Positions 2,062 through 4,017 of a DNA stretch of 4,132 nucleotides are shown in pieces; position 1 is the stretch's first letter; every line of letters begins with the position of its first letter. Source of the DNA: a virus (lineage: Duplodnaviria > Heunggongvirae > Uroviricota > Caudoviricetes); the IMG/VR virus record IMGVR_UViG_2778261667_000003, one strand, 5' to 3'. The position numbers were made by a program, and so were the translations under genes. The notes beneath the pieces were generated by a model. It saw only the letters and a program-made list of their open reading frames with translations, searched no databases and was not told where the DNA came from.

Positions 2062-2454
2062 TTAAAACTCGCCTGCGCGCTGTTTTTCAAGCACAGATTT
2101 AACATTTGGCGCTTTACCTTCAAAAGAATGGAAAGTGCCACATTTTTCTGTCTTCACCTCGCGCAGAGCTTCGCCATCGGCGTTCTGCCATTGATGGGAT
2201 AATGTCATATCACCGCGAGAAGGAACATCAAGCGAGTACTGCGTGTAGGTTCCCCCCATCTCCGCATACTCCTGGAACACATAGCTCATTACGTCAGATT
2301 CAGTTTTCTGATGCGCGTTATCGACCTTATTCCCATTCAGAAATATGGCATCCGGATAGATTTTTATATCAAACTGACCGCACTTAACTTGTAAATTTCC
2401 AGCACTCGCGATCAAAGGGAAAGACGCCAGTAAAGCAATAGCCAATCTTTTCAA
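2062..2454 (-). CDS. Secreted periplasmic protein, 130 aa, with a PliC/MliC-like fold pattern (lysozyme-inhibitor family), two Cys
   Basis: TTG start at 2452-2454 with GGAGG 5 nt upstream on the - strand. N-terminal signal peptide MKRLAIALLASFPLIASA with an ASA cleavage motif. Mature part has one Cys near the N-terminus (KCGQF) and one near the C-terminus (EKCGTF), with a W-x-x-x-D-G-E-A segment reminiscent of the MliC/PliC W-x-K-G-D-E-A motif. The SGSGA inhibitory motif is not evident, so function is uncertain. Stop TAA at 2062-2064. Confidence 0.65.
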   Translation of the reverse strand: MKRLAIALLASFPLIASAGNLQVKCGQFDIKIYPDAIFLNGNKVDNAHQKTESDVMSYVFQEYAEMGGTYTQYSLDVPSRGDMTLSHQWQNADGEALREVKTEKCGTFHSFEGKAPNVKSVLEKQRAGEF

Positions 2455-2474
2455 TTCTGCCTCCGTTGCGTAAC

Positions 2475-3098
2475 TTATTGACCGTGCTTTTTACACCATT
2501 GCTCTGCCATTTGTTTGGCCAAAGGTCCAGCCACTGCACTGTATTCTGCTGTTTTGCTTTGCACACATGATGCAGATGGTTTTTTATTGCGCTGCTCGGT
2601 TAGTTGGCGCTCATAAGCCATCATGCTATCGAACCCGGCAACATCACTCTGGCGAAGCATTCCCTTTTTAACCAAAAATTGCTGCCCCTCGGGCACCAAA
2701 GCAAGCATAAAAAGCGGTTGCAATAACTCACCTAACCCTTGCTGGCGATACACTTCGAATTGCTGCCATCCCTGACTTAATCTGGCAAGAGTATCTTTTG
2801 TTGAATAACCTGTTTTTGTTATAGCTTTGTCCGTCAGATACGCTGTATATGCAAAAACGCAAAAGTCAGATTTACCAATAAACTGAGTTCCAACTGGCCG
2901 TAATGGAATGCCCTCCCTCTTGCAAAAGTCCATAATTGCCGCTTGTGAATGATCCCCACCAGCGTTATTCATAACCTGCTGCCCTGCCCTGAATTGTGCG
3001 GGTAACGCAGTTGCATTGGCCATATTAACAGATACGCATCCCAACATAGCCGCGAGCGCGGTCCCTAAAACCCTTAACTTCACTACACCGTCCTTCAT
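2475..3098 (-). CDS. Predicted lipoprotein/exported protein, 207 aa, function unknown; first gene of a two-gene - strand operon
   Basis: N-terminus MKDGVVKLRVLGTALAAMLGC has a positively charged n-region, a hydrophobic core and a lipobox-like MLGC (Cys 21). ATG 3096-3098 has no clear Shine-Dalgarno; an in-frame GTG at 3081-3083 is preceded by AAGGA at 7 nt, so the true start may be 15 nt downstream. Stop TAA 2475-2477, 20 nt before the next gene's RBS. Confidence 0.7.
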   Translation of the reverse strand: MKDGVVKLRVLGTALAAMLGCVSVNMANATALPAQFRAGQQVMNNAGGDHSQAAIMDFCKREGIPLRPVGTQFIGKSDFCVFAYTAYLTDKAITKTGYSTKDTLARLSQGWQQFEVYRQQGLGELLQPLFMLALVPEGQQFLVKKGMLRQSDVAGFDSMMAYERQLTEQRNKKPSASCVQSKTAEYSAVAGPLAKQMAEQWCKKHGQ

Positions 3099-3311
3099 GT
3101 AAACAAAATGAGGTTTTATGTTATAAAAACTATCAACTACATCAACATGATTTAGGCCAAGTTTCGGTCAAATAATAAAATCCTCAAAAAGTGGTTGACA
3201 CTATTCTGGAAATCACAAACTGCACATAATCCATCGCGCTAACGGCTCCCGTTGAAGGTTCTTTTGACGATTAACTTTCAGCCGAAGCGCGGTAGGGAGT
3301 CACGCCAAAGC

Positions 3312-3336
3312 AGGCCGCCATGTGCGGCCTTTTTTT
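3312..3336 (+). terminator. Strong rho-independent terminator: stem AGGCCGC/GCGGCCT (3312-3318 with 3324-3330), loop CATGT, T-run 3330-3336
   Basis: Perfect 7-bp GC-rich stem followed by 7 T on the + strand. It lies only 27 nt upstream of the ATG of the next gene, with the RBS in between. Confidence 0.75.
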
Positions 3337-3363
3337 GTATCCGTCATCCGTGGAGGAAGGACA

Positions 3364-4017
3364 ATGGAGAAGATAGCAATATTCAGCCTGACCACCAGCA
3401 AACCGCAAATGCTCACTGCAATACTGAAAGACGGCGCTCTCGTGATTAACGAAGTAAAACCCCTTCCCGCGTCAGCATTGGAACAAAAGCAAAAAATTCC
3501 TCCAGCTATAGCAGCCCTGCGGAAAAGCAAATTTAAGGTACTGGTAGACGAAATTACACCAACGATCTCCGCTGGCACCGGAGCAAGCCAGGTGACTCTC
3601 AAGACCCGTCATGCCGATGGTAGAGCAGCAATCATCGTCGGGATGGAAAGATACAGAGAGTTAAAACTCCAGAAACTATTATCCCTGCCGCAAAATAACA
3701 AAGGTGCTTTCGAAATCCCCGACTCTATCGTTGATACCGAATACAACGGTAACGGAGAAGAAGTCTACAGGGTGAACTGGCAGGATATCAGGCCGGAACA
3801 TATTCTGATGATCCTGTGTTGCTACGCGACCGTATACCACAACGTTGCCAGTGCGGATTACGTAGAGCAGATGACCGGTACAGTCGAGAAAGAGCAAAAA
3901 ACAGGCATACTCGCTTCGTTCCTTTCCATTATTGGGCATGAAAAGGTTAAAGCAGGCAGTTCCCAGCCAAAGTCACTGGCTGGGAAAGAAGTTGATGAAG
4001 ATACCGTGATACTTTGA
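3364..4017 (+). CDS. Hypothetical protein, 217 aa, acidic C-terminus, no signal peptide, no recognisable domain
   Basis: Strong RBS GGAGGAAGG (3352-3360) just upstream of ATG 3364. The track's longer version starts at GTG 3322, inside the terminator hairpin, which is implausible. Long open frame with stop TGA 4015-4017. Confidence 0.7.
   Translation: MEKIAIFSLTTSKPQMLTAILKDGALVINEVKPLPASALEQKQKIPPAIAALRKSKFKVLVDEITPTISAGTGASQVTLKTRHADGRAAIIVGMERYRELKLQKLLSLPQNNKGAFEIPDSIVDTEYNGNGEEVYRVNWQDIRPEHILMILCCYATVYHNVASADYVEQMTGTVEKEQKTGILASFLSIIGHEKVKAGSSQPKSLAGKEVDEDTVIL

Follow-up and report, generated by a model that had tools for sequence, protein, structure and literature searches.

The window analysed here is the whole of a 4,132-nucleotide (nt) stretch of viral DNA (IMG/VR record IMGVR_UViG_2778261667_000003). 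Its 4.1 kb are ~93% identical to phage D6 and to ~90-kb D6-type Escherichia coli plasmids, and we assign its source to a D6-like phage-plasmid of the P1 family. In order, the window carries an immI region, two minus-strand genes for secreted proteins, a region with a leader and a terminator, and a gene for a 217-residue protein that an earlier note on this DNA had taken to be an orphan. It is instead a homolog of P1 mat, since its product is 98.6% identical to the D6 'maturation control protein' and 33% identical to P1 Mat. Our subject is the ~100-nt leader in front of mat. This leader has the conserved features of a separate, structured RNA, and it is complementary, in a manner that covaries between lineages, to the 5′ leader of the messenger RNA (mRNA) of the major capsid gene, gene 23. 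The features on which the argument draws are as follows.

3208–3222, plus strand: −22 element of the D6-type late promoter, GGAAATCACAAACTG; the D6 tail-fibre operon (gene R) is preceded by an identical 15-mer
3225–3230, plus strand: −10 hexamer CATAAT, spaced from the −22 box as in other D6 late promoters
3236–3337, plus strand: mat-leader RNA (~100 nt), beginning at the predicted start and ending with the terminator U-tract; covariance model R1 matches 3231–3338 with 128 bits
3236–3250, plus strand: 5′ strand of the closing stalk (core GGCTCCC at 3244–3250, outer GCG at 3236–3238), which pairs with 3295–3305
3253–3269, plus strand: recognition segment A′, TGAAGGTTCTTTTGACG, comprising the 5′ arm and loop of hairpin H1 (3254–3279); 17 base pairs (bp) with the start of the gene 23 mRNA
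3281–3293, plus strand: hairpin H2, whose GCGCGG box (3287–3292) is recognition segment B′, complementary to CCGCGC of the gene 23 leader
3295–3305, plus strand: 3′ strand of the closing stalk (GGGAGTC at 3295–3301, CGC at 3303–3305), identified from the stalk duplex and its covariation
3312–3337, plus strand: intrinsic terminator (stem 3312–3318/3324–3330, loop 3319–3323, T7 at 3331–3337), the 3′ end of the predicted leader RNA
3352–3360, plus strand: Shine-Dalgarno (SD) sequence of mat, GGAGGAAGG, as read from the sequence
3364–4017, plus strand: mat, encoding the 217-residue maturation control protein homolog

The terminator hairpin, AGGCCGC-CATGT-GCGGCCT, has 7 bp, six of them G-C, around a 5-nt loop (−12.5 kcal/mol) and is followed by seven T residues. 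It thus has the form of an intrinsic terminator, a G+C-rich hairpin directly before a U-tract on the transcribed strand, and together with the T-run it is the strongest terminator-like site in the window. The earlier note was correct in placing a strong terminator before the 217-residue gene (stem 3312–3330, T-run 3331–3337), and also in seeing no room for a promoter behind it: only 26 nt separate the T-run from the ATG at 3364, and the ribosome-binding site at 3352–3360 lies within them. The structure is not a chance hairpin, because it occupies the same place before the mat start in all enterobacterial mat loci examined, including that of P1, where the protein is only 33% identical. Since mat lacks a promoter of its own, its translation must depend on transcripts that extend beyond the terminator. 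The read-through already suggested as its route of expression is the sole option that remains, and it is on this ground that we infer it. The U-tract is interrupted in some clades, so read-through probably differs between lineages.

Upstream of the leader, the TTGACA that had been reported at 3195–3200 is present. The accompanying claim that no well-spaced −10 exists does not hold, since CATAAT at 3225–3230 forms part of a late-type promoter that has no −35. The region from 3208 to 3230 reads GGAAATCACAAACTG-CA-CATAAT. The 15-mer GGAAATCACAAACTG recurs upstream of the D6 gene R operon, where a TAnnnT hexamer follows it, and close variants of the −22 element, each with a TAnnnT −10 after it, lie upstream of lydA, prt (the portal gene), pmgB/sit, upfC, capsid gene 23, gene 7 and orf16. 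The D6 motif can be written AAAT(C/A)ACA(A/T/C)A(C/G)T(G/C)-N3-4-TAnnnT and precedes 8–9 late operons, the exact 15-mer being common to mat and gene R. In the P1 record LPmat, Pmat and a C1 operator are marked in front of mat, and LP23 is annotated in P1 as well. Motif, recurrence and a phage-encoded Lpa homolog, which D6 possesses, agree with a P1-type late (Lpa-dependent) promoter, activation by Lpa being a prediction. From the sequence we assign 3208–3230 as the D6 counterpart of the P1 late promoter, with a −10 and a −22 element and no −35. The positions of these elements predict a transcription start at about 3236–3238.

This arrangement is widely conserved. Among mat loci drawn from GTDB genomes, IMG/VR, metagenomes, PLSDB and GenBank phages, every enterobacterial locus examined has the same layout of a late promoter, a ~100-nt leader, a GC-rich hairpin with a T-run, a ribosome-binding site and mat. 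The lineages that share it include D6-like, Pantoea/Enterobacter-type, Citrobacter-type and several metagenomic phages as well as P1, P7, SJ46 and Cronobacter phage JK004. Of 5,426 complete E. coli genomes, 101 contain the mat leader and 102 the gene 23 leader, and in every case the copy is on a plasmid. The mat homologs of Vibrio and Photobacterium have no such leader; a terminator, where present, is followed there by a promoter-like stretch. Two metagenome contigs show rearrangements at the locus. In one (L102) unrelated sequence is joined exactly at the terminator, so that leader and promoter are lost and terminator and mat are kept, and in the other (L104) the leader is cut within the 3′ strand of the stalk upstream of mat. 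Rearrangements of this type would lack the RNA and yet keep mat.

In P1 the corresponding hairpin, AGCCGCC-GCT-GGTGGCT, and TTTCTTTTTTGT stand directly before an ATG at record position 2827, which aligns with the ATG of the window (positions 1317–1430 of our P1 region, L003, are 2716–2829 of AF234172). The annotated P1 mat start, at 2716, reads through both the leader RNA and the terminator, and the P7 reference does likewise. In most P1-type genomes, however, the N-terminal extension that this start implies is put out of frame by a 1-nt indel (GTAGGGGCGCTATG instead of GTAGGGGGCGCTATG). Other annotators use the short start, and the N-terminal protein alignment begins at the internal ATG. The frame disruption and the use of the short start elsewhere indicate that the annotated P1 start is probably wrong, being placed 111 nt too early.

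The leader has a common architecture in which a long stalk, formed by the first ~20 nt with ~20 nt that precede the terminator, closes a junction containing H1 and H2, and a short linker then leads into the terminator. The same three-way junction is obtained from independent single-sequence folds of eight divergent lineages, P1 and JK004 among them. The stalk duplexes are better than those of shuffled controls in every clade. The stalk core covaries, appearing as GGCUCCC/GGGAGUC, GUUCCC/GGGAAC, CGAACC/GGUUCG and UCUGG/CCAGA, and the stalk pairs of the P1 superclade are GCCCGGUAC/GUACCGGGC (P1), GCCCGGUGC/GCGCCGGGC and ACCCGGCGC/GCGCCGGGU. H1 has a large conserved loop, UUCUUUUGACGAUUAA in the window; H2 is small, and its GCGCGG is invariant in the D6 superclade. 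Covariance model R1, built from the D6 clade, finds one copy of the leader per phage genome and recovers all D6-superclade mat leaders with E values of 1e-6 to 1e-36. A scan of D6 with the model yielded no further copy, also upstream of the other late operons. In the model-made alignment, the fitting of which to the model biases its pair counts, 90.5% of cells are paired as against 35–50% when the partners are slid, and 17 pairs have changed on both sides as against 3–6, values that none of 500 shuffles reaches.

Two other treatments of the leader structure were abandoned. Alignment on sequence alone followed by RNAalifold recovered the terminator and misaligned the stalk strands, and it was replaced by the per-clade duplexes, single-sequence folds and covariance-model alignment just described. 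An H-type pseudoknot, in which the 5′ CGCGCU pairs with AGCGCG in addition to the stalk, was also rejected. The 5′ tail is variable, and in the Pantoea-type clade unpaired, so that the pseudoknot is not a conserved feature and survives only as a clade-specific alternative fold.

The architecture of the leader recalls that of C4 RNA, and for this reason whole genomes were scanned for complements of H1. In the 91-kb genome of D6 the best non-self complement, by a wide margin, is CGUCAAAAGAACCUUCA at the 5′ end of the gene 23 mRNA, with which UGAAGGUUCUUUUGACG (window positions 3253–3269) forms 17 contiguous bp (−28.9 kcal/mol). The −10 of the gene 23 late promoter immediately precedes this site, which is ~18 kb from the mat leader. 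The H1 of P1-type phages, UGGAUCCCUUUUC, is quite different and matches GAAAAGGGAUUCA (13 bp) in the gene 23 leader of P1, close behind the −10 of the annotated LP23 and 44 nt ahead of the start of gene 23. The SD sequence of icd was considered as a target of H1, the loop of which resembles a C4 loop, and was set aside because the duplex is weak (−17.7 kcal/mol, compared with −28.9 kcal/mol for the gene 23 leader) and is not the best match.

For a comparison across lineages the upstream regions of gene 23 were taken from the same contigs as the mat loci, and the 150-nt mat leader was matched against the ~100 nt upstream of gene 23. Throughout these pairs, which represent at least 12 lineages, the longest run of complementarity is between H1 and a site, here termed site A, at −42 to −57 from the gene 23 start. 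The partners diverge together, as these pairs illustrate.

Pantoea type: H1 GGAAUUUUUGAC, gene 23 site A GUCAAAAAUUCC
L040 type: H1 GAGGGUACUUUUGAC, gene 23 site A GUCAAAAGUAACCUC
L057 type: H1 GAGGUUUUUUGGCG, gene 23 site A CGCCAAAAAACCUC
L066: H1 GGUACUUUUGGCG, gene 23 site A UGCCAAAAGUAUU
L068, with a matched 1-nt insertion: H1 ...UUUUUCGACG, gene 23 site A CGUCGAAAA...
JK004: H1 UGGGACUCUUUUCA, gene 23 site A UGAAAAGAGUUCCA

Cognate duplexes of H1 with site A have a mean energy of −22.6 kcal/mol against −14.6 kcal/mol for non-cognate ones (permutation p < 1e-5). The compensatory changes include GAC/GUC to GGC/GCC as well as the matched 1-nt insertion. Where in-register positions depart from Watson-Crick pairing they are almost always G·U (at least eight independent cases) and never A·C, and there are two non-wobble mismatches, a G·A common to L039, L040 and L042 and a U·C in the Pantoea type. 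In each lineage the start of site A coincides, to within 1 nt, with the base at which the capsid mRNA is predicted to begin.

A second site, B, lies beside the first. The GCGCGG box at 3287–3292 has its complement in CCGCGC, a sequence that lies a few nucleotides 3′ of site A and is conserved in all D6-superclade capsid leaders. In L068 both partners have changed (GCGAA/UUCGC), and the H2 loop of P1 and JK004, GGCAC, has its counterpart in a conserved GUGCC of the capsid leader. Complementarity to an mRNA leader that is maintained by compensatory change, here in at least 12 lineages and at two sites, is what is expected of a trans-encoded base-pairing small RNA (sRNA) of the translational activator type. 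The late-promoter motif and the terminator that flank the leader are both present and conserved, and a short transcript is the predicted outcome. The suggestion of the earlier note that the terminator might end an independent ~100-nt RNA is therefore strongly supported, both by a conserved structured RNA that ends at the terminator and by its covarying trans target in the capsid mRNA leader.

The complementarity could in principle be a feature of the DNA, either a binding site for a common late regulator or an inverted repeat or duplication, instead of an RNA–RNA pair. Both copies do lie just downstream of late promoters, and sites for one protein would also be expected to co-vary within a genome. 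Three observations make this reading extremely improbable. The differences between the copies keep G·U pairing in the manner just described, with no A·C; sites A and B stand in the same 5′-to-3′ order in both RNAs, where an inverted DNA duplication would reverse it; and the copy at mat coincides with the arm and loop of an RNA hairpin that itself covaries. The shared order of the sites and the G·U pattern together argue for selection on RNA–RNA pairing rather than on a DNA site.

It might alternatively be supposed that the leader acts purely in cis, as an attenuator, a riboswitch-like element or a leaky terminator that keeps Mat low, and that the complementarity to the capsid leader has no function. 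A stalk-closed junction followed by a terminator and then a ribosome-binding site does resemble the leader of a riboswitch, and the nature of Mat may give reason for low expression. The 217-residue protein matches no Pfam family. Its AlphaFold model (predicted local distance difference test score, pLDDT, 80) is most like the nuclease domains of large terminases and RuvC-type resolvases (Foldseek E about 5e-4, TM about 0.45), and D62, E63, D85, E95, E145 and D165 are invariant acidic residues. Judged by this model Mat may be an RNase H-fold nuclease, for which a low dose is plausible.

The specific predictions of control in cis fare poorly. When RNAs truncated after the 5′ half of the terminator were folded, no partner for that half recurred across clades, and the competing antiterminator that the earlier note had proposed to look for is accordingly not a conserved feature. 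Nor did its suggested search for a riboswitch or leader family give a hit, Rfam 15 returning no match at E values up to 1 for 3230–3337, for the P1 leader or for the gene 23 leaders. The covariance model for C4 RNA (RF01695) matches the window at 642–729 (77 bits) and 91–169 (38.6 bits) alone, with nothing at 3230–3337 even at E = 1, and the isrK model likewise has no match at 3230–3337, the isrK-like RNA of the window being at 519–597. A boxA-like antitermination signal (CUUUUGAC compared with CUCUUUAACAA) was a resemblance only and was dropped, the motif being explained by pairing with GUCAAAA at the 5′ end of the capsid mRNA. Of the proposed attenuation and conditional control, then, the real terminator in front of mat stands, and a conserved antiterminator or known riboswitch or leader family to go with it was not found. 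A leader acting purely in cis would also leave unexplained why H1 and GCGCGG track the capsid leader by compensatory change in at least 12 lineages, and we regard it as decidedly unlikely.

The RNAalifold consensus of 13 gene 23 leaders predicts a bipartite hairpin in which two pairs have undergone compensatory changes. The GUG start codon lies in the outer stem of this predicted hairpin (for example UUCACG/CGUGAA), and an SD-like AGGG in the inner stem, GCCC/GGGC. The 5′ strands of the two stems coincide in part with the pairing sites, that of the outer stem with site A and that of the inner stem with site B. Because both sites overlap the sequestering strands, pairing should open the hairpin. 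In predicted cofolds of the mat leader with the gene 23 leader the outer stem is lost, and the net energy gain is −11.4 kcal/mol. By this modelling the target hides its SD and start in a structure that pairing could open, as would be required of a message activated by an sRNA.

A different capsid leader, behind a late-type promoter, is found in the distant P1-like lineages L272, L274, L276, L277 and L287, where an AGCC...GGCU pairing apparently buries the SD sequence (AGAGG).

The terminator, the late-promoter motif, the covarying leader structure, the two-site covarying complementarity and the inhibitory fold of the target are computational observations. Taking them together, we think it likely that the terminated late leader RNA activates capsid translation in trans and that mat is expressed by read-through of the terminator. 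Under this proposal the late (Lpa-type) promoter at 3208–3230 would start a transcript at about 3236. Most transcripts would stop at the terminator (3312–3337), assuming termination to be efficient, and yield a free ~100-nt RNA, and the minority that read through would serve as mat mRNA. The freed RNA would fold into a three-way junction closed by the stalk, and H1 and the GCGCGG box, displayed on it, would in the cell pair with the two adjacent sites at the 5′ end of the late gene 23 mRNA. The gene 23 leader on its own would hide the SD-like AGGG and the GUG in its hairpin; pairing would open this hairpin and permit capsid translation (anti-antisense activation), and it may also protect the 5′ end of the mRNA. 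P1 offers a possible rationale: gene 23 lies there directly downstream of the par operon, and with its leader locked, any transcript reading through would stay untranslated in lysogens until the late RNA is made.

The direction of the effect deserves particular consideration. The identical pairing evidence would serve an RNA that represses, destabilises or titrates the capsid mRNA in trans, and duplexes at the 5′ end of an mRNA can recruit RNase III. Neither site, however, covers the SD or the start codon, while both overlap the sequestering strands, the geometry of known activators. It is on account of this geometry, which is that of the anti-antisense activators, that we have chosen translational activation, and repression in trans appears to us very unlikely.

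The roles of the two RNAs might also be exchanged, the capsid mRNA leader acting on the nascent mat leader to alter termination at 3312–3337 or the translation of mat. This would be antisense-controlled attenuation as in plasmids of the pT181/pIP501 type, and it would couple synthesis of the nuclease-like Mat to capsid expression. The same covarying complementarity applies to this scheme, mat does lack a promoter of its own and lie behind a strong terminator, and the leader in the window has two competing folds. Against it, the pairing segments are at least 45 nt upstream of the terminator, and the truncated folds reveal no alternative pairing with the 5′ half of the terminator that is conserved across clades. 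The capsid leader, by contrast, has the look of a regulated target, with a conserved hairpin that sequesters SD and start and overlaps both sites. We consider such a reversal unlikely, if worth bearing in mind.

Several points weigh against activation of capsid translation by the mat leader RNA. The D6-type covariance model finds no match in P1-type genomes, and since it does not detect the P1-type leaders, the case for homology of the two types is built on position, architecture and target. When P1 is taken alone, the gene 23 site ranks only eighth in its genome by duplex energy. The bias of the pair counts in the model-fitted alignment has been mentioned. For the window clade the minimum-energy fold (−41.8 kcal/mol) scores better than the junction fold (−31.4 kcal/mol), and it pairs the 5′ CGCGCU with the AGCGCG box, which would mask site B′. 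This alternative is backed by one compensatory change, in L031. The better score and the L031 change make a conformational switch that masks the GCGCGG box possible, as far as such folding models can indicate. The ends and the abundance of the short RNA are predictions from sequence. Moreover, both RNAs would come from late promoters, so that the regulatory benefit is not obvious, and the pairing could lead to repression or altered mRNA decay instead of activation. P1vir grown in a Δhfq host has been reported to give smaller heads and a lower burst (10.64898/2025.12.28.696737). This phenotype is compatible with an Hfq-assisted riboregulator of the capsid gene and is no evidence for one.

The proposed mechanism has parallels in several known systems. 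DsrA, RprA and ArcZ acting on rpoS, RNAIII on hla and GlmZ on glmS all pair with the upstream strand of a hairpin that hides the SD and start codon of the target. The mat leader shares with these anti-antisense activators a target leader that hides its SD and start and pairing to the upstream strand, but differs from them in having two recognition modules on a three-way-junction scaffold and in placing site A at the predicted first nucleotide of the mRNA. C4 RNA (RF01695), from the immI region of P1 and P7, belongs to the same phage family; a long stalk closes it around two internal hairpins, and its two recognition elements (a′ and b′) are directed at two sites in the target leader. The H1 loop of the mat leader, GGUUCUUUUGACG, also resembles the loop of the C4 RNA of the window at 642–729, GGUUCCCUUUGACG. 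However, C4 RNA is processed from an early/immunity transcript and represses icd/ant, whereas the mat leader has a late promoter, its own terminator, gene 23 as target and a predicted activating role.

IsrK of the Salmonella prophage Gifsy-1 is a short RNA that base pairs in trans and turns a translationally inactive mRNA into an active one (PMC4825925). IsrK (RF01394) and the mat leader are both phage-borne, and in each a single promoter gives a short terminated RNA and a read-through mRNA. IsrK activates its own read-through transcript, while the covarying target of the mat leader is a different mRNA, that of the major capsid gene 18 kb away. No sequence or covariance-model similarity links the two RNAs. 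StxS, the short PR′-tR′ transcript of Stx phages, is a by-product RNA with a trans-regulatory function (PMC7547250). StxS and the 6S RNA of phage lambda resemble the mat leader in that a terminator follows at once on a late promoter. The genes downstream of them need the Q antiterminator and StxS targets host genes, whereas the predicted target of the mat leader is a structural gene of the phage itself. The mat leader thus differs from IsrK, C4 and StxS in both target and logic. We know of no antiterminator in P1/D6 phages.

No description of the leader RNA was found in Rfam, in the P1, P7 and D6 annotations or in the searchable literature. No RNA regulator of the capsid gene is annotated in P1/D6-type genomes, and the P1 record treats the region as protein-coding. 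Geneticists have relied on P1 for 70 years, and phage-plasmids of the P1/D6 type often carry resistance genes in Enterobacterales. The fuller picture would be of a previously undescribed late RNA acting as a two-pronged key that unlocks the capsid mRNA in P1-family phage-plasmids, and which in P1 has been hidden beneath a mis-started mat open reading frame (ORF), the same unit dosing the nuclease-like Mat by read-through. We judge this picture, taken as a whole, to be evenly poised between right and wrong. If true, it would add a post-transcriptional layer to late gene control and place capsid synthesis under an RNA checkpoint in a phage that is among the most studied, and it would provide a rationale for the 'maturation control' locus. 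It would also supply synthetic biology with a compact RNA lock-and-key pair of which orthogonal natural variants exist in at least 12 lineages. The start codon of mat in the P1 reference annotation is corrected by the probable short start given above.

The remainder of the window is occupied by the neighbours of mat. The minus-strand genes at 2062–2454 and 2475–3098 encode small proteins with signal-peptide-like N-termini that belong to PHROG families of unknown function. The pair (2062–3098) stands where D6 has a simB-like gene and diverges from the mat promoter region, and a minus-strand sigma-70-like promoter (3201–3172) overlaps the TTGACA at 3195–3200.

The immI region contains, in order, a weak C4-like RNA (91–169), a small ORF, an isrK-like RNA (519–597), a C4 RNA (642–729), icd and a frameshifted ant. 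The C4-like RNA at 91–169 scores 38.6 bits, which is below the gathering threshold, and is a weak second copy beside the full C4 RNA at 642–729 (77 bits). The isrK-family RNA at 519–597 (62.7 bits) has its own terminator and also weakly matches the model of the C4 a1/b1 target; it seems to carry an upstream C4 target, GGGAUUGGAACCCC. The ant gene (999–1926) is split by a frameshift with its junction at about 1603–1607: residues 1–208 of D6 Ant correspond to 999–1607 in one frame and residues 207–313 to 1603–1923 in another. The equivalent antirepressor gene of a close relative is classed as a pseudogene by RefSeq.

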